The position numbers and the translations under genes are program-made. From positions 52,561 to 116,560 of the forward strand of contig JAFTFU010000004.1 in NCBI GenBank assembly GCA_017458285.1: a DNA stretch of 64,000 bases, written 5' to 3'. The stretch is from Clostridia bacterium (GTDB lineage Bacteria > Bacillota > Clostridia > TANB77 > CAG-508). Of this stretch, positions 21,691-61,981 are shown in pieces; position 1 is the stretch's first letter, and every line of letters starts with the position of its first letter. Below the pieces are notes generated by a model. The model saw nothing but the letters and a program-made list of their open reading frames with translations, was not told the DNA's origin and did not search any database.

Positions 21691-22707
21691 CGTTATTTAT
21701 TGGACTATATCTTCTATAACTAATTGTTATAGGACTGCGCTACGGAATAGTGCCTATCTCTATTCCTCTTGAAATTATATTTCATTTAGTCTCTACACTC
21801 CAATAAAATCCTTTATATAAAGTTTTATTTTTTATTGCTTTATTTAAGCCAGAATGTCCAGTTAGTTGTAAATAATCTAATACAGCGGTTTTGGCATTAA
21901 AAACTCTTAATAAATTCCAATCTTTATCATACATATAGACTTTTTTACCGTTTACTGCTTTATCCCCTTTTTTACCATACATACCATTTTTTTCGCCAGA
22001 AACAGCTAAAGACATTTTTTTACGGTATTCTAAAGTTTTCATGTAATCTGTATTACGATTATTTTTAATTTTATTTTTTGTTTCTTCTGTTAAATGAGCT
22101 CCATAACGAGGGTTATTAGGACCAGAATATTTAATACTCATTTTTTCTGAATATAATTTTCTCTATTCTTCAGACCATCCAGCAGTTGTATTACCGCCTT
22201 CTCCACCCTCATGGATATTATAAAAATTTTTATCTTTTACGGCATTAAAAACTTTTATAAATTCTTTTTCTTTCTAATTATTTTCTTGCTCATTAGAAGA
22301 AATAAATAAAATTTCTTTTTTAAAATTTTCTTTACCATATTTATTAATAGCTAATTTAATTAAATTTCCACTACCTAAATAATCATCGTTTAATTCACCA
22401 TGATGTTTTCCTATATATTTTTTTCCATTAATTAAATTAGTAGTTAAATAAATATAATATTTTTTCATATAAATCACCCTTTCATTGCTTTATGAAAAAA
22501 GTGATATTGACATTGACTGACTTTGACCAAGATTTTATTAAAGCACGGTATTATGAGCCTAACCGCTTGCGGCCGCACACTCTCTTAGTCAGCTGATTCG
22601 TGTATTTTTATACCTTATTTTGCTGATACCGTTAGCCTATTAAAATAGACACCCCTTGGCAGGGTTCACAGTCTTTTTTTACAACTCGGCAATATCAATA
22701 TTAGACT
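21691..22707 (-). mobile_element. group I intron 1 in Pol III alpha
   Basis: The exon ..GAACUCGGU pairs with intron GCCGAGUU (8 bp, U.G at the splice site). GGCUAACGGU core and a GCGGCCGC hairpin are present. The intron ends ..AAUAACG. Splicing gives RVELG-DIDIDV, matching the canonical R-V-S-M-P-D-I-D-I-D. Confidence 0.8.
21782..22468 (-). CDS. intron-encoded GIY-YIG homing endonuclease
   Basis: [22 protein letters not shown]. Track ORFs 22274 and 21782 join in frame through 2 sense TAG. RBS AAAGGGTGA. Confidence 0.75.
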
Positions 22708-24084
22708 ACCGAGTTCAACTCTATCTTCATTAAGATATCTAAAGAAAGGCAAATCCCATTCAATAGGATCTAACTGAGTAATACCCATTAAATAATGATT
22801 TAAAGCTGCACAAGAAGAACCTCTACCTGCGCCAATAGTAGAACCGCACTCCCAAATTAAATTAATATAATGTTGAAGAGTATTAGGGTAACGAAACATA
22901 TTTGTTTCAAGCTTTTCACTAATAATACTTTTTACACGAGCCTCTTCTTCTAATTCAGTAAAATATCGTTCAGCTTTTGGAGAATAGCAAATTCCCAATT
23001 CATACATTTTTTCAATACATTGATTTACCCAATAACGATTTTGAATATCATCATCATGTAACATTTGACTTAAATGAGGATATTTAGGATTATCTTCTCC
23101 AACGCCATTAACAGTCATCCAATAAGATTTAGGATATTCTTTTACTTCTACGCTTGGCACATCTTGTTTGTGGAACAAAGAATATCTTGAAATTTTATTA
23201 TAAATTTCTAAAGAATTTTTCATAACTATTGATGCAAATTCTTCATCATTATCAAAAGTAATTGTTAAATTCTTTAATACTTCATCAGGAGACATAAGAT
23301 AAGCATATTTATAAAATAAATCTACTTCTCGTTCTCCTTCTTTAGAATTAAGATATGCTTTATGAACTTGTCTATCTTCTTTTGTTAAATAATGACTATC
23401 TGTTCCAACCGTCATTTTAATATTATATACGTTAGCTATAGAACGAAGAATTTGATTAACTCTAATTTGGTCGTTAGAAGGTGCAGGCGCACATTCAATA
23501 TAAAAATCATCACCAAATAAATTTAAACAAAATTTTAGAAATTCTTCTATTTTTTGATAATAAATAGTTGCATTAGAGATATCATCTACTTCTATGCAAT
23601 CTTTATAAGCTATAGCTAATTGACTTAATTCTCCACCAATACAAGCTGTTGTTGCAATTAGATGACCAGGAAATTTATTTACTACTTCTACTAATTCAGA
23701 TTTTAAAGTAGGAACTCTTTCCATTTTTCTATCTACATAAGAATTCATCCAAGCGCGAGAACTTAATTCTCGTAATGCCCTATGACCAATAGCATCTTTA
23801 GCAATTAAAATAAAATGATAATATTTTTGGCCGTTATCTCTTGTATCAGTTAAATAAATTTCATTACCTAAAGCTAATTTAAAATCTGGATTTCTTTCTT
23901 GTACTTTAAGCATATACTTTTCAGCAGCTATATGAGCAGATAATACTTCATGATCAGTAATGGCTATTCCCATTAATCCCATGTCTATAGCTTTGTCAAT
24001 AAGCTGCTCTGGTGTATTTATACAATCTACCAGCCGCAGATTTGAGTCGGTAGTATGGTTATGATTATTAAAATATGTATTCAT
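22708..24084 (-). CDS. dnaE: DNA polymerase III alpha, exon 1 (PHP domain)
   Basis: NNHNHTTDSNLRLVD..GIAITDHEV PHP motifs. 459 codons, no TAG. Ends at GGU. Confidence 0.85.
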
Positions 24085-35074: not shown

Positions 35075-36084
35075 CATGTTATCTTATGTTTCCATAAGCA
35101 CTGACTATCTTTTACTTGTAGATATATCTACAAGGAGACCATTTCGAAGTGCGTATCAATAGCACCCCTACTCCTCCGCCCAAAAGGCAAAGAGGATAGT
35201 CGATACAGGTTAATTGTGTATTAATAAATCTGTTAAAGTATAATTTTCATTATTCAAAATAATTAAAGGAATATTATGTTTTTTACAATATTCTATCTTC
35301 ATCTAATCGTGCTTTTGAAGTGTTTCAAAACCATCACTCCAGCTCCCATTAGGCTATTCATAATGCTATTTTCCATTATACTCAATTAAATGTGATAGTT
35401 TTCCATTTTTAAATATGGCAAAATCAAAACGCAATGCTCGTATATCTTTTAAATCTGAAAATGTATATTGTGTGGCAAATTCTATTTTATTATCTATTAA
35501 CATTTTGGTAATTTTTTGTTCATTAAAACTATGAACACATCCACAACTTTTAATTAAACCTTCACGTAAATGCTAACCACTTGTAATAAATATATTACCA
35601 CAATATTTACATTGACATTTCCACATTGCTTTTAAGTTTTTACTTCCAGCAAAATCTATTACTTTAATTCCATCATTTTCAAAATCAATCATATTTTTTA
35701 TATTTTTAGATTCTTTAATTTTACAGCCACAGCTTTTTGTATGCCCTGACTTTAAATTACGAGTATCTACATTGGTTTCATTGCCACAATCACATAAGCA
35801 ATGCCATTTACCACCTTTAATATAATATAAAGGAGTTAAATATCCAAACTTCTAATTTGTTAAATCTTGACGAGGTTTTGAATTTCTTATTTGTTTTTCC
35901 ATATAATAATTCCACCTTTCATTATTATATAAAAAACGTTTCAATATCTTTAACAGATTTTGACACAATTTTTCCCACGGGATTACCATATTTTATAAAC
36001 TTAGGTTTCCCCGTTAGCATCATCTATAATCATAGATAATACCCCGTTGATGAGACGGAAAAATCTTTCATTGGCAGATAACCT
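35075..36084 (-). mobile_element. group I intron in the ThyX-like gene
   Basis: The exon ..CUGGU pairs with intron GCCA. The T of the apparent TAG is the last exon nucleotide. Core elements UGCUAACGGGGAAACCU, CCCGUGGGAA and GAUAGUCAGUGCUUAUGG are present. The intron ends ..GAUAACAUG, like T4 td. Confidence 0.75.
35210..35902 (-). CDS. intron-encoded homing endonuclease: zinc-ribbon repeats plus PD-(D/E)xK (Vsr/DUF559-like) nuclease
   Basis: DLTN(TAG)KFGYL..CLCDCGN..KSCGC repeats, then RFDFAIF..LIEYNGK(TAG)HY. 231 codons. The stop lies inside the 3' ribozyme core. Confidence 0.7.
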
Positions 36085-36490: not shown

Positions 36491-36743
36491 TTTTTAAATT
36501 AGAATCCTTTGCAGTAGAATTTAAATTATTAATAGAATCATTATAAGTGACTGTATATTGATTATCACCAGAAGAAGAGGTTGTAGTTACCCATTGAAAA
36601 GGATTATAATTTGGAGTAGTGTAAGTCCAAGTTCCGCTATTTGCGCGATAACCATCCCAATAAGCTTCGTCAAGAAGCTTTTGAAGTTCTTCTTTAGTAA
36701 TTTCAATTTTATTATTTTTATTAGTTGTAAATATTTTAATCAT
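36480..36743 (-). CDS. hypothetical protein
   Basis: Intact 87-aa ORF overlapping both neighbours by a few nt. Confidence 0.6.
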   Translation of the reverse strand: MIKIFTTNKNNKIEITKEELQKLLDEAYWDGYRANSGTWTYTTPNYNPFQWVTTTSSSGDNQYTVTYNDSINNLNSTAKDSNLKNEI

Positions 36744-37777
36744 TTTATACTATACCCCCAGTCTTTAGCATGATAAAATTCTTGCCAATACCATTCTCTT
36801 TCGTTTAATTTATCTGCAGTACATTCTTCTAAAATTTCAAATGTAAAATTTTCTGGACCTATTTCATACATAGCCGGATAAAGTTTATTACGTGTAGCTA
36901 CTTCTGCACCTGTTCCACGTTTAATATGTTGACGCCATCTTTCAGCAATATTAACTGCTTGACCAACATAACACATCTAATTTTTAATATTAGTAATTTT
37001 ATAAATACCAGTATGCTACCCCTATCCAATAACTCTACCAACTAAATCAGTATAAGGTTTTTCATAATAGCATTTATAAATTACTTTATTAAGAGGAAGA
37101 TTATCTCTAAAATAAGGCAATATTTCTCTTAATCTTTTAATTTCTACCTAATCACTTAAAGATAACTTTAAACGATAAAAAGAATCATCTTCTTCTTTTT
37201 GCTAAGTTCTTTTGGCTACTTCAATAGCTGCTGAAACTTTACTACGTTCATCTTCTAATTGATTTTTTAATTCATCAGTTTCTTGGCGTAAAGAACCTAA
37301 CTTAGAATATAATTTACTTGTCTATTCTTTAAAATCTTCTTTAGCATCTTCCAAAAGAGAAAGATAGGTTTTATTTATATCTTCTCTTCTTTGCTAGAGA
37401 TTTTTACTTAGACGTTCCATTTCATGTTCGTAGTTTTCTTGAGCATTTTGTCTAGCAGTTTCATATATGGCTGCGGCCGCAGTTTTCTACTATTCAGTTA
37501 AATCATTTAAATGTTCTTTTGTACGAGTAAGTTCCTATTCTTTTAAATCAATCTCTTTTATTAAAGTTTGTAAAATATCCCCACGTTGTTCTATTAACTA
37601 CTAAAACTAATTTGCCTAATCTTGCAAAGTATTAATACTTACTTTTAAATTATCTCGCTATACTATTAAAGCAACATTAGACTCCTATATTTTTTGTAAT
37701 TTTGGTTTTAATATTGAATAACAAATGCCGGCGCCCACTCCGCCTGCGACTATAGTTAATAAAATTATAAAAATCAT
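36740..37777 (-). CDS. membrane-anchored coiled-coil protein with C-terminal GIY-YIG nuclease domain
   Basis: MIFIILLTIVAGGVGAGICYSIL TM segment, about 200 aa of coiled coil, then TGIYKITNIKN(TAG)MCYVGQAVNIAERWRQH..NEREWYW. 346 codons with about 15 sense TAG. The frame was checked at three points. Confidence 0.75.
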
Positions 37778-38132: not shown

Positions 38133-38888
38133 TTAATGTATAATAAATTCACTTGTCTCTAATTTTAAATCTTCTATAGTTAATTTATTTAGATGAGTAT
38201 AAGGTATTCTTATAATAGGAATATTATGAGAATGACACCAATCATTTTTTATATTATCTCTTTTTTGCTATTCTTGAAGAGATAATGAAAAGAACTTATT
38301 TTCTTGAAAATGTTGTATTCCATCATATTCAATTATATAAGAATTATCCACAAAAAAATCAAAACGAGGATTACTCATTTTATTATTTTCATAAGTTAAA
38401 TCATCAAATGTTTTTTCAGCTACAAATGAAATATTATTATTAGTTAGTAATGTAGCAATTTTATACTACCCTTTTGACCGGATGCAACCACATGAAGTTG
38501 TATTTCCGGATATTAAATCATTAGCTCTTACTTCTATATGATTACCGCATTCACATAAACAATTCCAAACTACGCTATTATTAAGCCGTTTATTTGTAGA
38601 ATGTATTGCTATTAATTTTCCAAATTTCTAATTTGTTAAATCTTTAGCTATAAATTTATGCTAATTCATAGGGCCGGTTTTCTTGCCAATACGACTTGCT
38701 ATTTCTTTCTATAAGCATCCACAAGAAGTAGTTTTTCCTCTAATTAAATCCTATGTTCTAACTATTTTAGTATTACCGCAATCACACTAACAAAACCAAG
38801 GATAATGATTGTTTAGTTTAAAATCACATTTATATAATGCCACTAATCTTCCAAAACGTTGATTAGTTAAATCAAATGCTTTTGCCAT
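38133..38888 (-). CDS. free-standing homing endonuclease, zinc-ribbon repeats plus PD-(D/E)xK-like nuclease
   Basis: DLTNQRFGRL..CQCDCGN..TSCGC, then DLTN(TAG)KFGKL..CLCECGN..TSCGC, then RFDFFV..IIEYDGIQHF. 252 codons. Confidence 0.75.
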
Positions 38889-39024
38889 ATAATTCTCTCC
38901 TTACAAAGAATCTAAATAAATGAGCTTATTTTAGTAAGGAATAAAATATTATCTCAAAAGGTAGCTAATCTTTTGCTCCCTCATTTATTTTATGTAAAAA
39001 TTATATCAAAAAAATTTTTTTATG

Positions 39025-39219
39025 TCAAGAATTTTCTTCTAAAATTTCTTGAACCATTTCATCAACAATCATCATATCAAAAGGTGTTAATGAACCAGAA
39101 ATTGACATAATTTCATCTTTTGCACGCAGAACTTCTGCACAATTTTCATTTGCTTCAATGATAGACTCTAGCTTAGCGATTCGTTCCGCAAGCTTTTTCA
39201 TTTCTTTCTTTTTCATCAA
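39025..39219 (-). CDS. hypothetical small helical protein
   Basis: Intact 64-aa ORF. Confidence 0.55.
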   Translation of the reverse strand: MMKKKEMKKLAERIAKLESIIEANENCAEVLRAKDEIMSISGSLTPFDMMIVDEMVQEILEENS

Positions 39220-39271
39220 TTTTTCTTCCTTAATTTTTACAAGTATATTATATAAAAATTTTTTAGAAATG

Positions 39272-40096
39272 TCAATCTAAAAATTTTAAAAATTCTTCTT
39301 CAGAAATAATAGGTATTCCGAGTTTTTTAGCTGATACATTTTTAGATGAACTTGAATTAATATCATTGTTAATTAAATAATCTACATTAGAAGAAATAGC
39401 TGATAATACTTTTCCGCCTTCTTTTTCAATGATTGATTTTAATTCATTTCTATTTTTATAATGTTTAATACTACCTGTAATTACAAATTTTTTATTTTGA
39501 AGCTTATTAGAAGATTCCATCATTTCCACTTCTGGGATATTTAAATATTGATAATATATATTATCTGCTTCTTCATAATTAAAATTAAGAATTTTTAAAG
39601 CAGTAATATCTCCCATATCTGGAAGTTTAGTAAAATCAAATTTATTATTAATAGCATCTCTAAAAGCTTCATAAGACTTAAAATATTCTGCTAATTGTTT
39701 TGAAGCACTTCGTCCAATTTGAGGAATTCCAATAGCACAAATAAATTTTTCTAATGTTGTTGTTTTACTATTTTCAATAGCTGTTAAAATATTATTAACA
39801 GAAGTGGGACCAAATCCTGGCATTTTTACCCATAAAGAGCGATATTGTTCAAGATTAAAAATATCTTCTATTTTACTAATCCAAAATTCGTCTATTAATT
39901 TTCCAAGAGTAGCTTTAGAAAGTCCGCGAATATCTAATCCAGATTTACCGCAAAAATGTTCAAGTTTATTAATAAATTTTCCTTCACAATTAGGATTAGA
40001 ACAATAGAGTTCTTCTGTATCAAAGTTTTTTCTTCTGATAGTTTTTTCTCCACAAATAGGACAAACAGTTGGTATAATCAAATATTCTTTATTCAT
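39272..40096 (-). CDS. ligA: NAD-dependent DNA ligase, C-terminal fragment (Zn finger, HhH, BRCT) as a separate ORF
   Basis: MNKEYLIIPTVCPICGEK..CSNPNC..GIPQIGRS..BRCT-like KFVITGS. ATG 40094-40096 overlaps the stop of the inserted endonuclease gene. Confidence 0.8.
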   Translation of the reverse strand: MNKEYLIIPTVCPICGEKTIRRKNFDTEELYCSNPNCEGKFINKLEHFCGKSGLDIRGLSKATLGKLIDEFWISKIEDIFNLEQYRSLWVKMPGFGPTSVNNILTAIENSKTTTLEKFICAIGIPQIGRSASKQLAEYFKSYEAFRDAINNKFDFTKLPDMGDITALKILNFNYEEADNIYYQYLNIPEVEMMESSNKLQNKKFVITGSIKHYKNRNELKSIIEKEGGKVLSAISSNVDYLINNDINSSSSKNVSAKKLGIPIISEEEFLKFLD

Positions 40097-40691
40097 AATA
40101 CTTCCAATGATAACCTCCACAAGTCTATCTTTGACCCCTACATACCATACAAATTTTACTTTGAGTAGTTTTTGGAACTTGTCTAGCAGCTTCTGAAGCA
40201 CTTTCATAAATTATTCCTGTTTCGATACATTGAACAGGTTTTTTACGAGCTTCAGAGGCTTTTTTTGCATTAATTTGACGCATCTTTAAAGCTTCTTTAG
40301 GATGTTCTTTTTGCCATTTTAACATATCCTAAGCACGTGCTAAACCAAATTCAGGATGCTATTTCATCCACTCGAGAGCTTTTGGTAAAGCATTAGGTGA
40401 AATTGGTGTCTAATTTCCTTTTAAAATATTATATCCATATTCTGGATTGTCACTTTGGTATAAGTTAATATAATATTCTTCTTTTTTATTTGCTTCTTGA
40501 TATGACCAATTACCCTGTTCTAGAATTAAATGTTCAAAATTATTCCATCCATATTTATTTATTGCATTATAAAATAAAGTACAAGATTTATAACCTTTTC
40601 CATTTTTCCATCTATCTTCAACATTCTACATTGTTTGTCCAATATAAACCTTATTGTTTATTTTATTTTTATGCATATATATTGTAATCAT
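40089..40691 (-). CDS. free-standing GIY-YIG homing endonuclease inserted inside ligA
   Basis: MITIYMHKNKINNKVYIGQT (the Q here is CAA) .. C-terminal CGGYHWKY. 201 codons with several sense TAG. Own RBS AAAGGAGGAA. Confidence 0.8.
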
Positions 40692-47120: not shown

Positions 47121-48401
47121 ACCCTCAGTAATATAAATTTCACATTTCTTGCGGTCTTTACTAAAACAATCAGCTAATTTAGAATCAAAGCGTAAAGCTT
47201 TTTCTTTTTTAGCTTGTTTTTCACGAATTGAATCTCTAGCTTTTTGCGCAGCTTCTCTGGCTTTTTTAGCCATTTTAGCTTTATCCGCTATAGCTTTAAT
47301 TTCTTTTTCATTTTGAGTGAACCATATGCGCAATTCATCTGCAATTGCCGCAGTAAATGGTGTCATTTCAAGCTTAGTAATTCGAGTTTTAACTTGTGCA
47401 TCATATGCTACGTTAGGAGCCGTAATATTAAATACAATATATAATCCTTCTTGAATATCATCACCAGAAAGATTATCTTCATTATCTTTAAGCCATTTCT
47501 TTTCTTTGAAGAATTTATTAAATTCTCGTGTAAGCAATGCTTTAATTTGTGTAATATGAGGTCCAACAGAAGTTAATCCTGTATTTACATATGGGACCAT
47601 AGTCATTGAATAATTAGACGTATAAGTCATAACCATATCAATTTTATTTTTCCCATTTGTAAAATTTAAATTAAAACGATTATTAATTAATTCTTTATTT
47701 TTAACTGCTTCATCTACTAAATCATTCAAACCATCTGTAGAATAATAAGTAGTTTTTTCTCCATTATTATCTAATTCTATAGTTAGACCAGGACAAAGGG
47801 CTGCAACAGTTTTAAATAAAACTTTAATTTCATTTACATTTACTTCTGGATGTGTAAAGAATTCTTCACTTGGTTCCCATTCTACGCAAGTTCCATTTTC
47901 AAAATCTTTAGCTGTAAAAATTTCTCGTTTATTAAATTCACCTTCAACAAAATAACAACGCTCTACTTGCCAATTACGATAAGTATAAACATCTAACCAA
48001 TGAGAAAGAAAAGTTGTTATTTTAGAACCAATACCAAAAGAACCTAAAGAAGTGCCTTCATAAGTACCATCTTCTCTATATTTTCCTGAAGTGTTTAATA
48101 CACTGAAAGCTGCTTCAAGAATTGTTTTTCCATCTTCTCTAAAACTATTAGGAATAAAACCTTGCCCATAATCTCGTACACGACACATTTTACCATTTAT
48201 TGCAACTTCAATTTTATCTCCATGACCTAATCTAAATTCATCTACTGCATTAGAAAAAATTTCTACTAATAATTGAGTTGCATATGTCGTATCTCCTGCA
48301 TATACGCCCGGCTTAAGTCTTGTAAATTCTCGTGGGTCTAAGCTTTCTATTGATGTTTCAGTATAAAGTGTTTTATCTATTTCTTTTTCTTTATTCAACA
48401 T
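47121..48401 (-). CDS. gyrB: type IIA topoisomerase subunit B, exon 1 (GHKL ATPase plus transducer)
   Basis: ..EIFSNAVDE..DYGQGF..GSFGIGSK.., ending ..CEIYITEG. No TAG. The start is ATG 48401 or GTG 48422. Confidence 0.8.
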
Positions 48402-49164
48402 ATTTCCATTTAAAACCTCCACATTTATTTCTTATTCCGCGGCATACTTTTGAAATTGCACTACTATCACAATTATTTTCTCTTGCGGCTAATGCCAGTG
48501 TGTCATAAATTTGAATAATAAAATTATCCTCATTTAATTTTGCTACTTTTTTACTAGAAGATTGTATTTGAGTTGTCCCAGGCATACCTTTATATGTATA
48601 TTTATTATATTTAGGGATAAGTAACTCATCTTTTTCATTCAACCAACAAAAATATCTATTATTAGTTGAATGTCTTTCACCCCTACAACAAGCAGCAATA
48701 TGTTTTTCACCTAAATTTTCTTGTTCAGCACAATCTGCAATACAACGCCAAATTTTTATAACATTATGATTTTCATCAATTTCAGCTATTCTTTTTGCAT
48801 TGTTTCGTTTTGTTTCACTAACTTTTTTATAAGTGTTGGGGTCATTTCTTGGATGATGAGTATCTAATGTTTGATTATAACCATTAGGAACTAATGTATT
48901 ATACTTAATTAGATATTCACGTTCTTTTTCTCTGACTTCATATTCATCCATTTCATCTGGGAAATACTATAATATTGTATAAGAGAAATTTTCTAATCCA
49001 TATTTGCGAATAGCGCAGTATAATGGATACTACCCCCTGGGAGTGTCTGGATGATTAACATGATAGAGATGCTAAGAATATCTCCTTTGCGGATTGATAG
49101 AACAACTTGAACCAATATATTTTTTCTAATTTATTAAATTAGTAAAACAATAAATAAAATTCAT
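48391..49164 (-). CDS. free-standing GIY-YIG homing endonuclease upstream of gyrB
   Basis: MNFIYCFTNLIN(TAG)KKYIGSS .. C-terminal CGGFKWKY. 258 codons. Confidence 0.8.
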
Positions 49165-49233
49165 ATTTTTCACACCTTTCATATAAATATGAATTTTATC
49201 TTAAATATGTTGTCCTGTCCTGACCCGACCTTA

Positions 49234-50676: not shown

Positions 50677-51006
50677 TTAGATACCATAATTAATATCTAT
50701 ATCTTCATTCGATGGAGCATCCCCATTATCAATATCGGCATTTAATTCTGCCATTACTGTTTCAAATTTAATACCGTTCTTTGTATTTTCTTTTGTTGAT
50801 TTATTATAATAAAAACACTAGCTTACACCATATGCACCCCAAGGTAAGCTAATCATAGCTGTTAACCAAGGTAAAGAACCAGTATAATCTTTCCAAACAC
50901 AAAATGCTGCTAGCGCTAAAAAAGCAAGTGTTACTATCCATATGAGAATAGACTCTTGGATTAATAACACTTTACTAAATGCTTTTTTAGATTTTTTCTT
51001 CGCCAT
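50677..51006 (-). CDS. putative holin
   Basis: Overlaps the endolysin 3' end. Two TM segments (ILIWIVTLAFLALAAFCVW and WLTAMISLPWGAYGV). One sense TAG; TAA 50677-50679. Confidence 0.6.
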
Positions 51007-51988
51007 TTAAAATACGATAAAGAACAGTAACAAACTCTTCACGAGTTAATGGTTTACGATACATTTTACGTCCTTGGGTGTCTCCTTTAATATATTTTTT
51101 AGATTCAGCCCATTCACGAGCTTTTGCAGAATAAGATTCAACATGCTCATCTGCAGCTAAATCTTCTAAATAAGCATTCATCAATTCTTTAAACTTATCA
51201 AGAGTCATATCTTCATCCTCCTCAATTGGTTTAATATATTTTTTAGTATAATTTAAATGTATCCATCCTTCTCCAGTATATCCCCATCCAGTAGAAGAAG
51301 TTTTAGAAATATGAACGATAGTATCATTATAATATTTTTTAATAATATTATAATTAGTTCCTGCGCCTTTGCGGCAATTTAAATAACCATCATCAGATTT
51401 AATAATAACATCGTAATTAACTTCTGTTATTTTATCCTCTACTTTTGGAGTTGTGCCTGGATTTTTTATTACCCAGTAATATTTAACTTGTTTTTTAAAT
51501 AAAGAGTAATCTCCTTGAGTTCTAGCTAATTTAGTAGATGCAGGGTCATTAATAAAAATTGTATTACCAGAGATTTTCCATACAACAATATAGTGTCCAC
51601 TTCTGGTCCAATTTCCTTTACCCATACAAGCTATTACTAAATCACCATTATCTACCGCATTTTTTGCCTGAGTATGATAAGATGTAGTAGAATTGCCATA
51701 AATGTTAGCACTGTTTAATTGCGTGCATTTTAATCCATATCTTTTAAAAGCCGGAACAAAGTATGAATAATATGTTCCAGAATTTAATGCTTTATAACCA
51801 TTTTTTAAAGCCCAAGCACATTCTGTCTTTGGTGTAACATTTTTATCAGCCCACGTTGCTAAAATCATAGCAGCACTGCTGGGGCCGCAACCTGAACCGC
51901 CAATAGTGCTGCTTTCACCTTTTACTGCATAAGGTATGTTTTTCCAACGAGGGTCTGTTTGAAAATATGAAACTGGTTGTTGTGCCAT
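50987..51988 (-). CDS. endolysin: papain-like (C39/CHAP-type) cysteine peptidase plus SH3b-like wall-binding domain
   Basis: GGSGCGPSSAAM (Cys) and SGHYIVVW (His). SH3-like YLNCRKGAGTNYNIIKKY..GWIHLNY. Confidence 0.75.
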   Translation of the reverse strand: MAQQPVSYFQTDPRWKNIPYAVKGESSTIGGSGCGPSSAAMILATWADKNVTPKTECAWALKNGYKALNSGTYYSYFVPAFKRYGLKCTQLNSANIYGNSTTSYHTQAKNAVDNGDLVIACMGKGNWTRSGHYIVVWKISGNTIFINDPASTKLARTQGDYSLFKKQVKYYWVIKNPGTTPKVEDKITEVNYDVIIKSDDGYLNCRKGAGTNYNIIKKYYNDTIVHISKTSSTGWGYTGEGWIHLNYTKKYIKPIEEDEDMTLDKFKELMNAYLEDLAADEHVESYSAKAREWAESKKYIKGDTQGRKMYRKPLTREEFVTVLYRILNGEEKI

Positions 51989-54051: not shown

Positions 54052-54080
54052 TTGACACTAGAAAAAATTTTTTTTATAAT
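54052..54080 (+). promoter_or_regulatory. consensus sigma70/sigmaA-type promoter TTGACA-17 nt-TATAAT
   Basis: TTGACA 54052-54057 and TATAAT 75-80 of the same kb (54075-54080), exact 17-nt spacer, 85 nt upstream of ATG 54166. Confidence 0.7.
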
Positions 54081-54165
54081 TAATATGTAAATTTTTTAGA
54101 GGTATATTTATGTGTAATATTCTTTAATGGGATAAAGAATAAAAATTAATAAAGGAAGTAAATAA

Positions 54166-55374
54166 ATGATATTTCATGATTGTACACAATGTACGAATGA
54201 ATGTCGGTTGCAAGCATTTGAAGCTGTCAGAGATGAATATTCATCTATTGACAGCTTCAAGTATAATCCGCAAATTCATTCTAAACCAAAAAGTATTTTA
54301 TTAGGATTAACTAATAAGTGTAATTTAAATTGTAACTATTGTTTTGTACATTAGAATCCTTTAGATATGACTTTTGATGTAGCAGATAAAGGAATTTAGT
54401 GGGTATTATCTAATTGTCAAGAAGATGAAAAGCCAACTGTTGGATTTTTTGGAGGAGAGCCTTTATTAAAATTTAATGATATAATTGTTCCTATTGTATA
54501 GAAATATAAAAATAAAGTTAATTTCTCTATTACTACTAATGGGATTCTATTAAATGAAGATATTATTGATTTTCTTCATGATTATGAAATTTATCCTTTA
54601 TTATCTTTTGATGGAGTTCCAGAAGTATAGAATAAACAACGCTCTAATTCATTTAATCAAGTATTGAAAAATATTCCTTATCTTTTATTACGTTTTCCTG
54701 AAATAACTATGCGGGCTACAGTTACAAAAGAATCTATTCCTTATTTATATGATACTGTATTAATGGCAGATGAATTAGGATTTAAACATATTTTCTTTTG
54801 TGAAAATGCTTATGAAGATTGGGATAAAGAGATTGAAAAAGAGTTAGAAGAATAGTTTAAAAAAATAGGCTTATTTATTTATAAAAGATTAAGAAATAAA
54901 GAATCTGTTTTAAAAATTGATCCTTTTAATCGTATTTTTGAAAGTATTGATAAAGGATAGCATAATGAATTATATTTTGATAATAGAATAATACGATGTG
55001 GGTTAGGAACTACTTCCTGCGCAATTACTCCAGAAGGAAATATAATTCCTTGTCAAGAAAAAATTTCTAATATAACGCATATAATTGGAAATATTTATAC
55101 AGGCATTGATTATAAAAAACATAAAGAATTTTTAATAGATTACTTTAATAAAGTAAATAATTTATCTTGTGATAAAGGGTGTTCGGATAAAAATAAATTA
55201 ATTTGTTTATCTCATTTATGCCCTTCTCGTTTAGAAGATTTAAATTATTAGTTTTCTACAGCTTCGTGCGCTTTTTCTCGTATGGCAACAAAAATTTGTT
55301 TAAGGCTATTCTTTTTATGTAGTTATAGCATAGAACCTAATATTAGAGAATATTGGGGAGGTGGATTAAATTGA
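54166..55374 (+). CDS. radical SAM enzyme with C-terminal SPASM-type Cys clusters (anSME / sactisynthase-like), enzyme A
   Basis: LGLTNKCNLNCNYCF (CxxxCxxC); GGEPLL; RCGLGTTSCAITPEGNIIPC; CDKGC..CLSHLC. 403 codons. 8 sense TAG, all checked in frame. TGA at 55372-55374. Confidence 0.8.
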
Positions 55375-56546
55375 ATCCGCGTTTACGACCTACAAAAGTA
55401 AGAAGTATTATTTTTACTGAAGCTTGTCCTTTAGATTGTTTATATTGTAATTTTAAGCAAAGTAATAATTTTGGTACTAGTAAAGGTTTAACAAAAGAGC
55501 AATTATTTCATTTAGTAGAAACTTTTGATAAATTAGATGATGTAAATACTATAGATACAAGGATATTATTTTCGGGCGGCGAACCCTTGTTGCGTTGGCC
55601 ATGGATAAAAGAAATTATAGAAAAATATTAGACAAGATTTTCTTATTCTTTTAATACTTCTGGATATTTATTTACAGAAGAAATGTTGGAATTTTTATCT
55701 CATTATTAGGTAGATTTTACTTTATCTATAGATGGTAATGAAGCGCTAACTAATTATCTGCGACCAGTAGTAAACAACCCTTATAAAGTAGGATATATGA
55801 AAGCTTTGAAAAAGATAGTTCCCACTTTTTTATATTATTTTCCTACTACTCCATTTAGATTAATTGTTAATGCAAGATATGTTGATTTATTATATCAAAT
55901 ATATCAATTTGCTAATGAATTAGGCTTCCCATATTTTACTTTTTTAATAGATTTTGGTCATAGAGATTTTGATAAACCTAATGAAAAACCTAAAAAAAAT
56001 TATTTAAAGTGGGAAGAAAAACATACTGAAATTTTAGAAGAGCAATTAATGTTAATTGTTAATAACATTTTAAGTTCTTATAAGCAAGGAATTAAAAGAA
56101 CACAAGTTTTAGAATTTAATTAGATTCTTAAATATTTATTTAATGAAATTAAATTTACTCCAGAAAATATTCATTGTTAGTTATTTAATAAAAGAAGTTT
56201 AACTACTTTATATAATAATGATTTAGAAGGATATTGTCTTAAACGAGAATTTCCTGATATTGAAAAATTAAAAATTGCTGTAATGGATGAATATAATTCT
56301 TTAAATCATACTTGTTATTTAGATGAAAAATGTCCTATGTTTGATTATTGTTGTATTCATTGTTGTATTCAAAGTGGTTATTATAAATCAAAACGATTTT
56401 TTGATTTTGATACTATTGAATGTTTAGTAATGAAAAGTTGTTATAAAGCTATTTTAAAATTATTATCTGTTGGAAATGATGAATGTAAAGATGTTTTTTT
56501 ATATCAATAGTACATACTTGATATGATAGAACAAGGGGGTGCTTAA
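55371..56546 (+). CDS. second radical SAM enzyme with C-terminal Cys cluster, enzyme B
   Basis: TTG start after GGAGGTGGA, overlapping the upstream stop (TTGA). FTEACPLDCLYCNF; SGGEPLL; C-terminal CYLDEKCPMFDYCCIHCC. 5 sense TAG; TAA 56544-56546. Confidence 0.75.
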
Positions 56547-56547
56547 A

Positions 56548-57192
56548 ATGTCTATTCCTAATTCACCTTCTTGCGATAGTTGTTATAATGGAGAAAGTTG
56601 TTCAGATAGAAATAGCGGCGGATGTTCTGGGTGTAATGTTTGTGATTATAGCTGTTAGACAATTTGTGAAGTTGGTTATTAGTCAATAAAAAATCATCCA
56701 AATGTTGGAGATTTTCCTTGGAAAGAAGTTAAACCAAAGATAGATTTTATAAAAGATGTTATTACAGCAGTTAATTGGAATTCTTTAATAAAAAAGCTAG
56801 AAGAAGCTGAAAAAGTAGGAGAAAAATCTTCTCAAGGTAGTAAAGGTTCTGCAACTTAGGTATAGCCTAATGGAGTTTTTTATGCTAATAATTATAATGA
56901 AATTTAGCAAAAATTAAGTGGTTTTGAAGATGCTGCTTTTGATCCTGTAGTAAAAAATGATTTAATTACAGCTGCACGAATTAATGCTATTAGAAATGCT
57001 TATTTAAATGCTAAATTTAAAAACAGTGTATGCGATGTATGTAATAGTGGAGAAAACTCTTGTAGTTGTAATTGCGCTTGTTCTTGTGATTGTGCGTGTG
57101 ATTGCCCTTGCCCGTGTTCTTGTGATTGTAGCTGTGACTGTAACTGTAGTTGTAATTGTAGCTGTGGGCCTTCCTGTGGAGATAATTCCTAA
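56548..57192 (+). CDS. 214-aa Cys-rich protein (N-terminal Cys cluster, helical middle, C-terminal alternating Cys-X tail); candidate radical SAM substrate
   Basis: ATG follows 1 nt after the enzyme B stop; RBS GGGGGTG. MSIPNSPSCDSCYNGESCSDRNSGGCSGCNVCDYSC(TAG)TIC ... CDVCNSGENSCSCNCACSCDCACDCPCPCSCDCSCDCNCSCNCSCGPSCGDNS. 5 sense TAG; TAA 57190-57192. Confidence 0.75.
57061..57165 (+). repeat. (TGY-NNN)n hexanucleotide-periodic tract encoding 18 Cys alternating with S/N/A/D/P
   Basis: 35 consecutive codons: C S C N C A C S C D C A C D C P C P C S C D C S C D C N C S C N C S C. Confidence 0.9.
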
Positions 57193-57194
57193 TT

Positions 57195-57287
57195 AAAATT
57201 TTGAAAAGCGATTTTGGTTTTGGATTGCGGATGTACTGACCCTGGCCGGCCGCAGCAGATATTTTTTTCGCATGCATGTGTGTGAGC
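57195..57287 (+). repeat. GC-rich structured element, copy B
   Basis: AAAATTTTGAAAAGCGATTTT..ATTGCGGATGT..CTGGCCGGCCGCAGCAG..TTCGCATGCATGTGTGTGAGC. Collinear with copy A at 26247-26344. Its 3' end merges into the operon terminator. Confidence 0.6.
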
Positions 57288-57316
57288 CCCTTATATACGT
57301 TATGTATATAGGGGGC
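57286..57316 (+). terminator. rho-independent terminator of the radical SAM cassette
   Basis: 12-bp stem gccccttatata / tatatagggggc with a 7-nt loop, followed by TTTAATTT. Confidence 0.75.
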
Positions 57317-57321
57317 TTTAA

Positions 57322-57373
57322 TTTGACTCTTTTTTTTTTTTTGTTACTATAAAAGAAAAAAGGAGTTGAAAAT
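57322..57373 (+). promoter_or_regulatory. conserved promoter/5'-leader cassette (copy 2) TTTGACTC-T13-GTTACTATAAAAGAAAAAAGGAGTTGAAAAT-ATG
   Basis: Nearly identical to the reverse complement of 6972-7030. Confidence 0.45.
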
Positions 57374-57811
57374 ATGGCGACAGCATTTTTAGGTTTACCA
57401 ACTGTTACAACTGGTACTTTAATTAAAGCATCTGATTGGAATAGTATGGTAAATAAAATAGATGCGGCTATAAAGAAAATTATGGTTGTTGAACATTTAC
57501 ATGAATTTGGAATTATAGAAATGAATAATACTTCTGAGAGTAAGACAATATCTTTACCATCGGCGACCGTAAAAGGATATTTTAAACTTGCAACTGCTCA
57601 CCCTCCAGATAGCAATGCTGTGATAGATATTCCTTTAAGGCAAGCAATTTCTAGTGTATCAATACCTACTACGAAGACTTTAGGTTGTACAGCAGCAATA
57701 ACATATCCATCAACTACTTCTTGTACTATATCAGCATCTCGAAACGGCGGCACAGGAAGTTATACTAGCTTGTATTATTGGGTATATATATATGAAGTCA
57801 TGTCAGTATAA
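57374..57811 (+). CDS. hypothetical small protein (N-terminal LIKASDWNSMVNKI motif shared with the Cys-rich protein and 6426..6971)
   Basis: Intact 145-aa ORF with no TAG. A bidirectional terminator lies downstream. Confidence 0.75.
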   Translation: MATAFLGLPTVTTGTLIKASDWNSMVNKIDAAIKKIMVVEHLHEFGIIEMNNTSESKTISLPSATVKGYFKLATAHPPDSNAVIDIPLRQAISSVSIPTTKTLGCTAAITYPSTTSCTISASRNGGTGSYTSLYYWVYIYEVMSV

Positions 57812-57906
57812 TATTTATATTTTTAAAGAAATTCTAAAAAATAAAATTGAGTAATATTTATTAAAATTACGATAGTTATAATAAATCTTTATATATGTAT
57901 ACATGT

Positions 57907-57940
57907 AAAAAATCCTCGTGCATAATGCACGAGGATTTTT
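57907..57940. terminator. bidirectional terminator
   Basis: aaaaatcctcgtgca / tgcacgaggattttt perfect stem. Confidence 0.8.
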
Positions 57941-57941
57941 A

Positions 57942-58712
57942 TTAACCATAATAGCCTCCATCGGGAGGGTCTCTGCGATATTGCCAATCTCTAGGACAAG
58001 TAACATTCATCCAACTGGGTCCGGAGCATTTTCCTTCATGAACACAACGAGCGCACTGCCTTCTTTTATATTCATCAACTTTTAACCAAGTTTCATAAGG
58101 CTTAATTTTAGTAACATCAGGTTCAACGCAAATATCATGTGGAGTAGTTCCTTCTTTAATCAAATGCGTATCTGTCCATTTAGTTTTCATCTCTTGGATA
58201 ATATCATTTAAATTACAAGGATAACAATCGTGAGCATCCATTGCAGTATTATACATCCAAAGATTATTCTCAAAGAAATGTTCTTTTTGATGAGTATGTC
58301 CAAAAAGATTAAGAGTCATTTGTTTTAAAAACTTATCATTATTCCCAGTGAGAGAAGGAAAATGACTCATATAAAAATGGTATCCCTGATGCTTTAGATA
58401 AATAGAATTTTTTGTTTCTACTACATTAGGAAGTTTAGAAAAAGCTTCCCATCTTTTATCTGTACAATGATTACCTCTAACTAAATGTAATTTTCCATTT
58501 ATTCTACTAATTAGATTTAAACCTTGTTCTAAACTTTTTTCTCCCCCTAAAAGAAGATCTCCTAATACATACAAATCATCTTCTGGTTTAACCAATTTAT
58601 TATTTCTTTTAATAATTTCTTCGTTCATTTCATTAACAGAAGAGAAATTTCGTGCTTTCCAAATAAATTCTCTATTGTGGCAAAAATGCCAATCACTTGT
58701 TATAAAAATCAT
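57942..58712 (-). CDS. calcineurin-like metallophosphoesterase with Cys-rich C-terminus
   Basis: SDWHFCHN, LGDLLLGG, GNHC and GHTH motifs. No TAG. Confidence 0.75.
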   Translation of the reverse strand: MIFITSDWHFCHNREFIWKARNFSSVNEMNEEIIKRNNKLVKPEDDLYVLGDLLLGGEKSLEQGLNLISRINGKLHLVRGNHCTDKRWEAFSKLPNVVETKNSIYLKHQGYHFYMSHFPSLTGNNDKFLKQMTLNLFGHTHQKEHFFENNLWMYNTAMDAHDCYPCNLNDIIQEMKTKWTDTHLIKEGTTPHDICVEPDVTKIKPYETWLKVDEYKRRQCARCVHEGKCSGPSWMNVTCPRDWQYRRDPPDGGYYG

Positions 58713-59367
58713 AAAACATCAATCCTTCATCTAAAGTGTCTGTTTTTGGAATTTCTTTCCAATGATAACCATAAGCTTTTTCAGTTATGCCATTTAGACA
58801 ACGTCTTATATTAGGATGTGCTGTCTTTTTTAAATATATATCTACATCAGCCATTGATTTGAAAACTAAATTTTTCTCTACTAATACAATATAACTTTTA
58901 ACAGGCTTTATTCCTAATGCTCGTTTAGATAATTCTTTATAGTTAATATTTTTAGAATTTAATGCTGTATATACTACCTAATCATAGATTTGAAAATATT
59001 GACAAGTTTTAGTTATTGAACAGCCATTTAATAAATAATAATTTACAATTTCATCGTAATTATATTTTGTATGACCTAAACCACCCAGGGCCGCATTATA
59101 TCCATTTTTAAAACTATTATAATGATTTATCCAAAATATTTCTCTTTCATTTAATTTTGAATTTTCACATTCCTCAATTTTTTCAATTATAAAATTCTAT
59201 TCACCATATTTATTAATCGCTAAATGTAAGGGAGCATTATGATCTTTATCCTACTCATTTTTTGCACTTTTACAATGGTCTAACCATCTGCGATGAATGG
59301 AATTTCTTGTCTATCCAATATATAATTTTTGATTTAATTTATTTGTAATTTTGTAAATAGAACCCAT
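58693..59367 (-). CDS. free-standing GIY-YIG homing endonuclease
   Basis: MGSIYKITNKLNQKLYIG(TAG)T .. AYGYHWKE. 225 codons. The end overlaps the phosphoesterase start. Confidence 0.8.
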
Positions 59368-59434
59368 ATTATAACACCTTCCTTTATAATACTTAAAAAA
59401 TATCACGATACGGTGTCATAAAACTGTCCAAAAC

Positions 59435-60740: not shown

Positions 60741-61124
60741 TTAATCCATTAATCTACAGAAAGGTACATAAAGAGAAGCTGAAAAACCAAGATTTTTCTC
60801 ATAATAAGCTCGACATTTTTCTTTTATGCAGGGTACAAATTCTTCTTCAGTCCACTCAGCATTTTTCATTTCAGTAACTACTTTTGGATTTAATTCGCTT
60901 TGATAATAATAAGCTGAAGTGATTTTACGAAATGGACAAAGTTTTACAGATCGTTTTTGAAAAGAAGATTTTTCAACTTTAGGATAATAATGTTCTAAGG
61001 CTTGTTCTACTCTAAATACTGGAATTAATTTTGAACCATTAGTATAACACTATTCTTTATCAATTATAGAATAATTTTCAAGAAAATCTTCTATTTTATT
61101 AGGGAAAGTCATAGAATCACTCAT
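60741..61124 (-). CDS. hypothetical protein
   Basis: ATG 61124 to TAA 60741-60743, 128 codons, one sense TAG. Confidence 0.6.
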
Positions 61125-61981
61125 TATTTTCTACCTCCTAAATAAGTTTTAGTAAATAATTTTCATTTAACTTATCATAATCAGTATAAGGAATTCTAAT
61201 TAAAGAAATATTTTTTATTTTACAATAATTATTTTTATATGTATCATATTCTTGAATATGTTTTAAACTTTTTTCTTTTTGCCCCCATCCAGAAAAATGC
61301 TGAGGTCCATCATACTCTATTAAGCATATTAACTAATCATTGTGGAAAATAGCATAATCGAAGTAGGCGAGTCGATTAGTTTGCGGGAAACGACAATCAT
61401 TAAAATAATATTGTGTTTTGAAGGATATGTTTAATTTAGTTAATAAGGTATTTATTTTTAACTCACCTTTAGATTTTAAACATCCACAAGACTAAGTATT
61501 ACCATTTGTTAAATTATAAGTTTGAATTTCTACAATGTTACCGCAATCACATTTACATTTTTTAGCATTTTTATTAAAAAGATTTTCTATGACAGTTAAT
61601 TTTCCGAAACGCTGCCCTACTAAATCTTTTTGTTCAAAGAACTATTCTTTAATGTGGCCGCAAGAAGTGGTATGATTAGAAGTTAAATAATCTGTTCTTA
61701 CTTCAATTTCTTTCCCACAAGAACATTTGCAAATCCATCGTGTATATTTATCATTACGTGCGGCTGCAGGTTTAATAGCAATCAATTCTCCAAATGACTA
61801 ATTAGTTAAATCTAGTTTTTTTTGTATTTGGCGCAATGCCCCATTCTTTTAAATTTTTCATAAGCGTTGGGCCAGAACAACCATATTCTTTACCTAATTT
61901 TTTTGATCCAATTTTTTTAATTGTATATTTATAAATTATATCTTGTTTTTCCTATTCAGTAAACGTTTTCTAAACAGACAT
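61117..61981 (-). CDS. free-standing homing endonuclease (HTH plus zinc-ribbon repeats plus PD-(D/E)xK-like), with a frame change at an A8 run
   Basis: MSV..GSKKLGKEYGCSGPTLMKNLKEWGIAPNTKK ends at TAA 61802-61804. The +1 frame after the A8 run (61816-61823) continues LDLTN(TAG)SFGELIAI..CKCSCG..TSCGH..CKCDCGN..SCGC..YFDYAIF..LIEYDGPQHF to TGA 61117-61119. Confidence 0.65.

Follow-up and report, generated by a model that had tools for sequence, protein, structure and literature searches.

A three-gene cassette within a 64-kb stretch of DNA assigned to a Clostridia bacterium (GenBank assembly GCA_017458285.1, contig JAFTFU010000004.1, positions 52,561 to 116,560; hereafter the window, numbered from its own first nucleotide) is probably a phage-borne operon for protein maturation, akin to the operons for peptides that are made on the ribosome and altered after translation (RiPPs). 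Three tightly packed genes on the + strand, A (54166-55374; 402 residues), B (55371-56546; 391 residues) and C (56548-57192; 214 residues), follow a promoter and precede a hairpin; with TAG read as glutamine, they encode two radical S-adenosylmethionine (SAM) enzymes and a cysteine-repeat protein. By analogy with known systems, A, together with B where it is present, would introduce thioether cross-links into the tails of C. Gene order and homology make it likely that C is the substrate of A and B; the chemistry, argued by analogy, would on balance be thioether formation. A sequence-only reading of the window had pointed out the three genes, the TTGA overlap between A and B, the 1-nt gap between B and C, and a set of Cys-containing motifs, all of which are present as described.

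The pairing of radical SAM gene and Cys-rich gene is strict. In each of the 13 lineages examined, an A-like radical SAM gene lies directly upstream of a C-like gene; most often the stop and start codons of the two overlap or abut, and the linkage holds down to 22-30% identity in C. The sequence-only reading had proposed conservation of the Cys-rich gene beside the enzymes and a search of metagenomes for their co-occurrence, and the C-like gene does follow its A-like partner in every lineage. Two enzymes are found in the window, L001 (a near-identical relative, an IMG/VR contig of 139.6 kb), L002-5, L006, L007-8, L016 (phage phAss-1), L021, L022 and L025, and one enzyme in L010-12, L013-15 (with weak intein signals), L023 and L024. 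A third radical SAM gene follows C in L007 and L022, where the two copies are homologous to each other, and is not found in the window; a 330-residue protein at the same position in L002 is unrelated to it. The flanks vary by locus (gyrase; ClpP and ligase; a phosphatase; an SLH protein; DUF2828; vault-like proteins), with the cassette adjoining gyrase genes in L002-5, L007-8, L016 and L022, and no gene besides the radical SAM genes and C is conserved across the examined loci. Open reading frames (ORFs) of 190-204 residues upstream of the enzymes in L002, L013 and L016, considered as a conserved fourth gene, proved unrelated to one another and to the window.

Enzyme A carries the motifs CNLNCNYC, CGLGTTSCAITPEGNIIPC, CDKGC and CLSHLC, passes the Pfam thresholds for Radical_SAM (PF04055; 57.9 bits, 1.9e-15; cut-off 29.5) and Fer4_12 (8e-6), and ends in a SPASM-type region with seven Cys. 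Its best NCBIfam match is the PapB ranthipeptide maturase (NF047865; 2.8e-51, 174.7 bits against a cut-off of 340), followed by the SCIFF maturase (1.6e-32, 112.9 bits against 425), the Nif11-type maturase (4.8e-31), QhpD (2.6e-30, 105 bits against 453), CcpM and the CXXX-repeat maturase (2.5e-25). The anaerobic sulfatase-maturating enzyme anSME (TIGR03942) is matched at 3.3e-17 (62.6 bits, and 43.4 bits for B, against a cut-off of 349); YhhB and AmcB, which form cyclophanes, and the epimerase YydG are matched with lower scores. Because all of these scores lie far below the cut-offs, A is, as judged by profile, a member of none of the matched curated families. The best match in the Protein Data Bank (PDB) is the SCIFF maturase CteB (5WGG; 1.9e-25), and since the alignment begins at CteB residue 93, running from there through the first SPASM segment, A has no RiPP recognition element (RRE); only 41 residues precede its radical SAM core, and about 12 precede that of B. 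Nine A orthologs all retain C52/C56/C59, C278, C296 and C352. The SPASM region is canonical in its first half, C278-x12-G-x4-C296, which aligns to CteB; its second half (C335x3C339x7C347x4C352 ... C368) departs from the usual spacing Cx2Cx5Cx3C ... C.

Enzyme B is a divergent radical SAM protein about 26% identical to A, with the motifs CPLDCLYC and CYLDEKCPMFDYCCIHCC. Its TTG start, preceded by the ribosome-binding site (RBS) GGGGAGGTGG, overlaps the TGA stop of A, an arrangement indicative of translational coupling. B passes the Pfam thresholds for Radical_SAM (53.9 bits, 3.2e-14; cut-off 29.5) and Fer4_12 (2.8e-9), and its best NCBIfam matches, both at about 4e-17, are PapB (62.3 bits; cut-off 340) and HxsB (4.3e-17). 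C19/C23/C26 are invariant in the eight B sequences compared, among them the B-like enzyme of phAss-1, and seven C-terminal Cys (C269, C289, C315, C321, C327, C332 and C351) are kept in all seven B orthologs; three of the seven are lacking in the phAss-1 enzyme. The two enzymes both fall in PHROG 1802 (5.9e-28 for A, 3.7e-13 for B). A role for A or B as activase of the ribonucleotide reductase NrdD was considered and rejected: B scores 32.7 bits against an NrdG cut-off of 131, and a separate NrdG-like gene lies at 13613-14125 (Fer4_12, 1.2e-33).

Protein C, whose ATG lies 1 nt past the stop of B, contains 29 Cys, of which eight fall in the first 40 residues and 21 in the last 55, in agreement with the sequence-only reading. 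An N-terminal tail (residues 1-41, eight Cys) is followed by a central domain (about 43-163), a VCDxCN motif and a C-terminal tail of CxC repeats that holds the other 21 Cys. A set of 5.8 billion proteins yielded 39 homologs, and a profile search of 1.84 billion representatives yielded 140 at E ≤1e-3, 31 of them at E ≤1e-30. Invariant positions in the alignment are C9, C12, N30, C32, Q37, C40, C162, D163, C165 and N166, D163 of the VCDxCN motif being invariant in 33 aligned close relatives. In the family the N-terminal tail has the invariant pair C9-x2-C12 and then a block with the consensus CSxYCNxGCNxxCxxxQTxC, and the core is built of three similar strand-helix units (WTAxxWNSLIxKL, ITAxxYNxxxxKL and ITAxxANAIxxxY, of the type ITAxxWNxL). 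An AlphaFold2 model of P0001, which is 97% identical to C, made with a 33-sequence alignment, has a centre (about 43-163) with three helices and a predicted local distance difference test (pLDDT) above 90, and both tails below 50; the core of C is thus predicted to be confidently folded and the tails disordered. A fold search with the model found nothing below E 1e-3 in the PDB and BFVD (best BFVD match E 0.02, TM 0.30), and the family, 33 members of which were tested in NCBIfam, has no meaningful match in Pfam, NCBIfam or PHROG, the SCIFF model included.

It is in the tails that the family varies. Homologs differ in the number of CxC repeats; in distant members the core and an ACDxCN motif persist, and one end or both bear CxxC or CxxxC repeats. 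When the 144 members with 150 residues or more are sorted by dominant repeat, 58 fall under CxC, 58 under CxxC and 28 under CxxxC, with the repeat period drifting among members while the core and the enzyme stay. Asp, Asn, Gln or Glu comes next after Cys in 56% of the CxxC and 61% of the CxxxC units, where the background is 24%; in CxC units the next residue is Ser (37%), Asn (17%), Gly (11%) or Asp (10%).

The setting of the cassette is that of a phage. The window (30% GC) is TAG-recoded, as the sequence-only reading had claimed: the share of it covered by ORFs of at least 100 residues rises from 46% under the standard code to 96% once TAG is read as sense, and every gene class in the window uses TAG in this way. 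TAG encodes glutamine, since TAG codons fall on conserved Gln positions in A and C: Q155 of A is Gln in eight of eight orthologs, standard-code ones among them, and Q37 of C is Gln in 32 of 32 homologs. The count of in-frame TAG codons is seven in A, where eight had been given, and five each in B and C, as reported. ARAGORN found no tRNA gene in the 64 kb, hence no suppressor tRNA there; in phAss-1 two tRNA-Sup-CTA genes lie near the cassette region.

All C-like loci are on phage or metagenome contigs, both recoded and standard-code, and the long contigs among them (55-190 kb, standard-code or TAG-recoded) are phage-like; one member, P0026, was seen on 41 contigs. No relative turned up when 185,579 bacterial and archaeal species genomes in GTDB were scanned twice by motif, an absence that is not absolute in that the scans need particular conserved peptides. 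In INPHARED, searches with the cassette and with C at the DNA level and by tblastn gave no match, and the unit was found only in phAss-1 (OQ749652.1), reached via enzyme A and then through that phage's own C homolog. Of the other INPHARED records matched by A, three were examined and set aside. Two human faecal scaffolds, L018 and L019, are ordinary bacterial loci of SCIFF peptide and maturase, and an Enterococcus fragment (L017) has no C-like gene and does not belong to this system. The SCIFF peptides of the two scaffolds, which are labelled 'Bacteriophage sp.' and come from faecal viromes, lie at 4555-4698 in L018 and 1020-1160 in L019 and have the form MKHIKT...GGCGECQTSCQSACKTSCTVGNQ.CE; they are probably bacterial DNA in virome data or SCIFF loci borne by prophages. 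These results agree with the earlier view that the genes are adapted to the phage and are no fresh capture from a host.

The phAss-1 unit deserves separate description. In this TAG-recoded gut phage of the same broad group, two radical SAM genes and a Cys-rich protein gene stand next to gyrB and gyrA. In the GenBank record (67831-68352 and 69400-70600) the 174-residue C homolog is unannotated and the enzymes appear as short 'hypothetical protein' fragments, a gap that we attribute to the in-frame TAG codons. The phage is partly recoded: the cassette genes contain 10, 1 and 3 TAG codons, and the nearby PhoH, gyrB and gyrA genes contain none. Because of this difference, translation of the phAss-1 cassette would depend on a suppressor tRNA, a hint, though only a hint, that it may be expressed late. 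The paper describing phAss-1 never mentions radical SAM. More generally, searches of the literature on radical SAM/SPASM systems in phages, on ranthipeptides or SCIFF of phage origin and on RiPPs encoded by phages turned up no description of the system (subscription-only papers lying outside their reach).

Comparison with L001 bears on how the cassette has evolved. The flanking genes of the two phages are mostly 85-98% identical in nucleotide sequence (GyrB 97% and PhoH 95% at the protein level), with synonymous divergence (dS) of 0.07-0.39 in the nearest genes and ratios of nonsynonymous to synonymous divergence (dN/dS) mostly of 0.04-0.15. The cassette genes stand apart: A is 80% identical in both nucleotide and protein sequence (dS 0.73, dN/dS 0.19), B 66-82% in nucleotide and 66% in protein sequence (dS 0.99, dN/dS 0.26), and C 58-70% in nucleotide and 64% in protein sequence (dS 1.03, dN/dS 0.31). 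The cassette is a divergence hotspot, yet A, B and C are all under purifying selection. Because it diverges more than its flanks, the comparison points to a cassette allele that is older than its surroundings and was exchanged by recombination, and the high dS would indicate exchange with another phage allele and not with a host gene.

Taken together, we propose the following scheme. The cassette would be transcribed from its own strong host-type promoter, the transcript ending at the hairpin. C would consist of a small folded core of three tandem strand-helix units, a pseudo-threefold domain, set between two flexible Cys-repeat tails. A and, in the subfamily to which the window belongs, its distant paralogue B, both of them radical SAM enzymes, would carry SPASM-type auxiliary Fe-S clusters and may divide the work between them. 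Reductive cleavage of SAM would lead to abstraction of a hydrogen from a residue next to a Cys, and the Cys sulfur would then be joined to that carbon, the likeliest acceptors being Asn, Asp, Gln, Glu or Ser located after the cysteines. As the reaction recurs down the tails, it would build up ladders of small thioether rings that withstand both reduction and proteases. PapB and CteB have an RRE, which A and B lack; docking is probably provided by the folded core of C in place of a leader peptide. The model of thioether formation seems the best supported because pairing is strict across deep divergence, because A is homologous to enzymes that cross-link Cys-containing peptides, because the disordered, periodic, Cys-rich tails have Asx or Glx after Cys, and because PapB accepts acceptor residues anywhere from i+1 to i+7 (PMC12373016).

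Where the product would act can be approached from the same data. Since the cassette is swapped between otherwise near-identical phages, the product probably works at the interface of phage and host, whether as part of the virion or a surface or in the role of an effector at or after lysis. Allele swapping, the location at the border of lysis and replication genes in relatives, and the TAG dependence hinted at in phAss-1 together suggest an interface or late-infection function, such as that of a virion component, an effector or a product released by lysis. More tentatively, the family could represent a phage-only class of radical-SAM-matured proteins, in which the pseudo-threefold core replaces the logic of leader and RRE and the tails are turned into dense poly-thioether ladders by one to three SPASM enzymes, the result being an interface component (a virion or adhesion element, or else an effector or counter-defence factor) that resists reduction and proteolysis in anaerobic gut bacteria. 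Such an interface role of a poly-thioether protein would explain the allele swaps between near-identical phages.

Several observations weigh against this proposal. A and B both score far below the cut-off of every curated family. The earlier description of both as radical SAM/SPASM enzymes stands by profile for the radical SAM and Fer4_12 portions; the Pfam SPASM match of A is below threshold (PF13186; 16.9 bits, E 0.008; cut-off 21.5) and B has none, and the SPASM character of B is argued from its seven conserved C-terminal Cys. Four of the seven SPASM Cys (C335, C339, C347 and C368) are lost in the A enzymes of L007, L021 and L022, for which reason these versions look twitch-like. The chemistry is argued wholly by analogy, and the interface role solely from the divergence pattern and the location. 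In the window the C-terminal tail of C contains much Ser, Pro and Ala besides its Asp and Asn, so that the acceptor residue is not obvious. The sole PDB sequence match of the C profile is metallothionein-1A, a weak match (E 0.014) driven by composition, and CxC repeats are also typical of metallothioneins. Finally, no protease, exporter or immunity gene is kept with the trio in the examined loci, which speaks against a secreted RiPP of the classical kind.

The most serious alternative, though in our view an unlikely one, is that C is the precursor of a classical RiPP or bacteriocin. Its core would then be an oversized leader, of the kind known from Nif11-like and nitrile-hydratase-like precursors, and the cross-linked tail or tails would be cut off and freed at lysis as an antimicrobial or signal of sactipeptide or ranthipeptide type acting on neighbouring bacteria. 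The relatives of A are RiPP maturases, the Nif11-type among them, and phage-borne bacteriocins exist, as phage SPbeta carries the sublancin gene cluster; the RecJ-like protein of the window is related to that of SPbeta-like phages. In several homologs (P0012-P0016 and P0040) GG or AG directly precedes the first Cys of the C-terminal tail, which resembles a double-glycine cleavage site, but neither the window C nor many other homologs have it. A protein with a Peptidase_C39_2 domain is encoded 2 kb away (50987-51988, - strand; 333 residues, its C-terminal part SH3-like by eye only), and C39 peptidases also cleave double-glycine leaders, so that it may have a role in processing C-type proteins; it is, however, more probably an endolysin, because relatives carry SLT and amidase lysis genes at the same place. 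Besides the missing protease, ABC exporter and immunity gene, no other part of C is as well conserved or as well folded as the core, which would be unusual in a leader that is discarded.

Somewhat less probable again is that C is no substrate at all. It might bind metal or Fe-S clusters, in the manner of a metallothionein, ferredoxin or scaffold, and either support A and B or sequester metals, with the enzymes acting on some other target (nucleic acid, a host protein or a small molecule). CxC, CxxC and CC are classical metal ligands, the profile match to metallothionein-1A points the same way, the invariant pairs C9/C12 and C162/C165 could form a Zn(Cys)4 site, and the cassette lies among genes of nucleotide metabolism. 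The window sequence CSGCNVCDYSC even has the ferredoxin-like spacing CxxCxxCxxxC; the spacing is not kept in the family, however, where the consensus is Cx3Cx3Cx3C, and Pfam gives no metallothionein or ferredoxin match for C. The free drift of repeat period and number is easier to reconcile with a substrate motif that is repeated than with defined sites for clusters. Moreover, the nearest relatives of A all modify Cys-containing peptides encoded next door, and no other conserved candidate substrate accompanies the enzymes.

We consider it improbable that A and B modify C by a different chemistry, be it conversion of Cys to formylglycine as by anSME, epimerisation, or C-C or C-N cross-linking. 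SPASM enzymes catalyse many reactions, A has matches to anSME, YhhB, AmcB and YydG, and two different radical SAM enzymes (three in some relatives) could mean several chemistries. Thioether synthases are, however, the best matches by a wide margin; the sulfatase motif C-x-[PA]-x-R is not present in the C sequence, the tails have almost no aromatic residues from which cyclophanes could be made, and Cys is the dominant conserved feature of the candidate substrate. That the cassette is instead a RiPP cluster recently captured from bacteria, and so a true moron without any role specific to the phage, merits hardly any credence: its own consensus promoter and hairpin, its position on the strand opposite to 50 kb of neighbours and its greater divergence from L001 might be so read, but TAG stands for Gln at conserved Gln sites in all three genes, the trio occurs in many phage lineages and varied genomic contexts, no relative was found in the 185,579 species genomes, and the high dS fits exchange with another phage allele. 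The label 'moron-like' given in the sequence-only reading therefore holds for the local layout (own promoter, hairpin, opposite strand) and fails as an account of origin, as the trio is present in L001 and all lineages examined and the motif scans gave no bacterial homolog. The trio has long belonged to this phage group, and in relatives it runs in the same direction as the genes around it.

The non-coding elements around the proposed maturation operon are well defined. The promoter, a sigma-70-type TTGACA-17-TATAAT sequence at 54052-54080 (+ strand), matches the consensus at 12 of 12 positions, exactly as claimed beforehand, and has a spacer with an A-run and a T-run; in L001 both hexamers are identical base for base. 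The window contains three such perfect sites, against 0.16 expected by chance. The other two (39000-39028 and 39247-39275, - strand) stand in tandem upstream of a DUF2726-type endonuclease-like gene (38133-38888), which itself sits downstream of a BRCT/HhH ORF like the C-terminal part of a ligase (39272-40207). The A6/T6-like spacer common to all three sites suggests one promoter class, and strong host-type promoters seem to mark self-contained inserted units in this phage. Between the promoter and gene A is an 85-nt leader (54081-54165) that contains the RBS of A (AAAGGAAG) and, as read from the sequence, a tiny upstream ORF (uORF; MCNIL-stop, 54110-54127) preceded by an RBS of its own. The leader is partly kept in L001, where the uORF is longer and its region contains a 10-nt insertion; a regulatory function of the leader is possible.

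Downstream of C lies a 3' non-coding element (57193-57283, + strand) whose core (CCCTGGCCGGCCGCAGCAG) is GC-rich. It shares about 90% identity with its counterpart in L001 (about 11015-11107), compared with 58-70% for gene C at the nucleotide level. Its substitutions show no 3-nt (codon) periodicity, Rfam gives no match across the operon and its untranslated regions, this element included, and a pattern search found it only in the IMG/VR contig that is L001. It could be a 3' untranslated structure, a small RNA or a protein-binding site. It is followed by a hairpin of 15 pairs with a 5-nt loop (57284-57318, + strand; folding energy -23.5 kcal/mol), then UAAUUUGACUC and a run of 13 U, which is the probable intrinsic terminator of the A-B-C transcript, although a simple terminator scan did not list it. 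The hairpin proposed in the sequence-only reading is thus real and longer than described there, with 15 pairs in place of 12.

The hairpin does not end the + strand block, as had been supposed. The block is, as stated, the sole one between about 10.6 and 64 kb, and extends over 54.1-57.8 kb to take in a fourth gene, D (57374-57811; 145 residues, no TAG codons), which has a promoter-like site of its own at 57323-57350. A 619-bp segment (57284-57902) comprising the hairpin, the promoter-like site and gene D is missing in L001, where the 3' element runs straight into a bidirectional hairpin that matches 57908-57940 of the window. No gene D homolog was found beside any other examined cassette, and D has no match in Pfam, NCBIfam or PHROG; it was rejected as a member of the system, being absent from L001 and all other loci. 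The absence of the segment from L001 identifies gene D as a separate, recent insertion and a better candidate for a true moron. The N-terminus of D (LIKASDWNSMVNKIDAAI) has a 17-residue motif like the repeated helix motif in helix 1 of C, a weak resemblance (hhalign probability 14%).

The - strand from about 10.6 kb to 64 kb is occupied by genes of replication and nucleotide metabolism: NrdD, a DnaE-type polymerase, RecJ, DnaB, PhoH and RNA ligase; gyrase subunits, matched as orthologs to relatives in which the GyrB and GyrA domains are called; and RNase H, a metallophosphatase, GIY-YIG endonucleases, an AAA_33 kinase and the probable endolysin. Homing-endonuclease-like genes of GIY-YIG and DUF2726 type are scattered through the replication module (35210-35989, 36740-37777, 38133-38888, 48391-49182, 58693-59406 and 61117-61836), and several core genes are split, as seen in the ligase-like BRCT/HhH ORF, an N-terminal piece of NrdD (15994-17280) and a piece of the polymerase (22666-24084).

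Other loci have neighbours of their own. In three unrelated lineages DUF2828/DUF7788 proteins are encoded a few genes from the cassette (L006 2330-3838; L014 8409-8480; L025 7489-8994 and 9547-10434), with a homolog of Gad1 (anti-Gabija) nearby in L025; the window has no DUF2828 homolog. The recurrence of DUF2828/DUF7788 and the Gad1 homolog of L025 are the reason to think that the cassette may sit in accessory or counter-defence regions. The single maturase of L013 (2626-4326) and L015 (1381-3081), a protein of 566 residues in a distant CxxxC-type system, has weak Hint, Vint and Intein_splicing signals, and two genes past it lies a gene for a 690-residue protein with the shoulder domain of major vault protein.

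To our knowledge, radical SAM/SPASM cross-linking is known almost entirely from peptide natural products of bacteria and a few enzyme subunits; the cassette would place it in a module conserved among gut phages of lytic type, recoded ones included. If the proposed function is true, RiPP-like systems would gain a branch restricted to phages, comprising about 140 cluster representatives with three repeat periods, in which substrates would be recognised without an RRE through a small folded docking domain, a property that could be useful for engineering thioether-stapled proteins. It would also point to a function rapidly exchanged among phages of strict anaerobes. The omission of the gene from the phAss-1 record owing to TAG codons exposes a systematic gap in annotation.

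Among known systems, PapB and its substrate PapA (freyrasin) offer the closest curated family for A. PapB is a radical SAM enzyme with two auxiliary clusters, and it joins Cys to Asp or Glu in a substrate of six CXXXD repeats, the acidic acceptor lying i+1 to i+7 on the C-terminal side of the Cys (PMC12373016). The cassette shares with this system the repeated Cys motifs, Asp and Asn being frequent after Cys. It differs in that A falls well short of the family cut-off (174.7 against 340 bits) and has no RRE, in that C is a 214-residue protein with a folded core and not a short leader-core peptide, in its CxC, CxxC and CxxxC repeats, many without Asp or Glu, in its second maturase, and in its occurrence in phages as opposed to bacterial clusters of Paenibacillus type.

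SCIFF and its maturase (Tte1186; TIGR03973/TIGR03974) are similar in other respects. CteB is the closest solved structure to A, with which it has in common the SPASM segment RxxCGxGxxxxxxxPxGxIxPCQ, and the N-terminal tail consensus of the C family, Cx3Cx3Cx3Cx6C with QTxC, has the spacing of the last five Cys of SCIFF. SCIFF is a 45-residue peptide of Clostridia genomes, whereas the motif forms just one end of a larger protein in the C family, and is shortened in the window C; the C family does not match the SCIFF model, and A scores 112.9 bits against 425. QhpD is likewise a SPASM enzyme that makes several thioethers from Cys to Asp or Glu, in a protein, QhpC, that is kept in a functional assembly, and A matches it at 2.6e-30. 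Unlike that system, the cassette comes with no dehydrogenase subunits, A scores 105 against 453, and C is unrelated to QhpC, with far more numerous and more repetitive Cys.

The repeat systems of Haft type (CXXX-repeat, TIGR04115; the Cys-every-fifth system CefB; the His-Xaa-Ser system HxsB/HxsC) likewise combine SPASM maturases with short periodic repeats, and HxsB/HxsC are a pair of enzymes. A matches the CXXX-repeat maturase (2.5e-25) and B matches HxsB (4.3e-17), and some relatives of C have long CxxxC runs. The scores are again under the cut-offs, however, and those systems are bacterial, with peptide substrates, no folded core and no CxC period; we know of no characterised products from them. 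Among phages, PHROG 1802, which takes in both A and B, is annotated simply as 'radical SAM domain-containing protein', and phAss-1, a phage of the 'code 15 clade', has the same unit of two radical SAM genes and a Cys-rich protein gene beside gyrB/gyrA, although with the C homolog unannotated and the enzymes in fragments the unit goes undescribed there.

In kind, then, the cassette is already familiar: a radical SAM/SPASM maturase and an adjacent Cys-rich substrate. Three features had been singled out as unusual in the sequence-only reading. Two of them have precedents, since protein-sized substrates are known from QhpC/QhpD and from sulfatases with anSME, and paired enzymes from HxsB/HxsC and RumMC1/MC2; the third, the phage setting, holds as far as the searchable literature goes. 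What appear to be new are the substrate family, for whose core fold no relative can be detected and which has three repeat periods, the lack of an RRE, the apparent restriction to phages, and the conserved operon itself.

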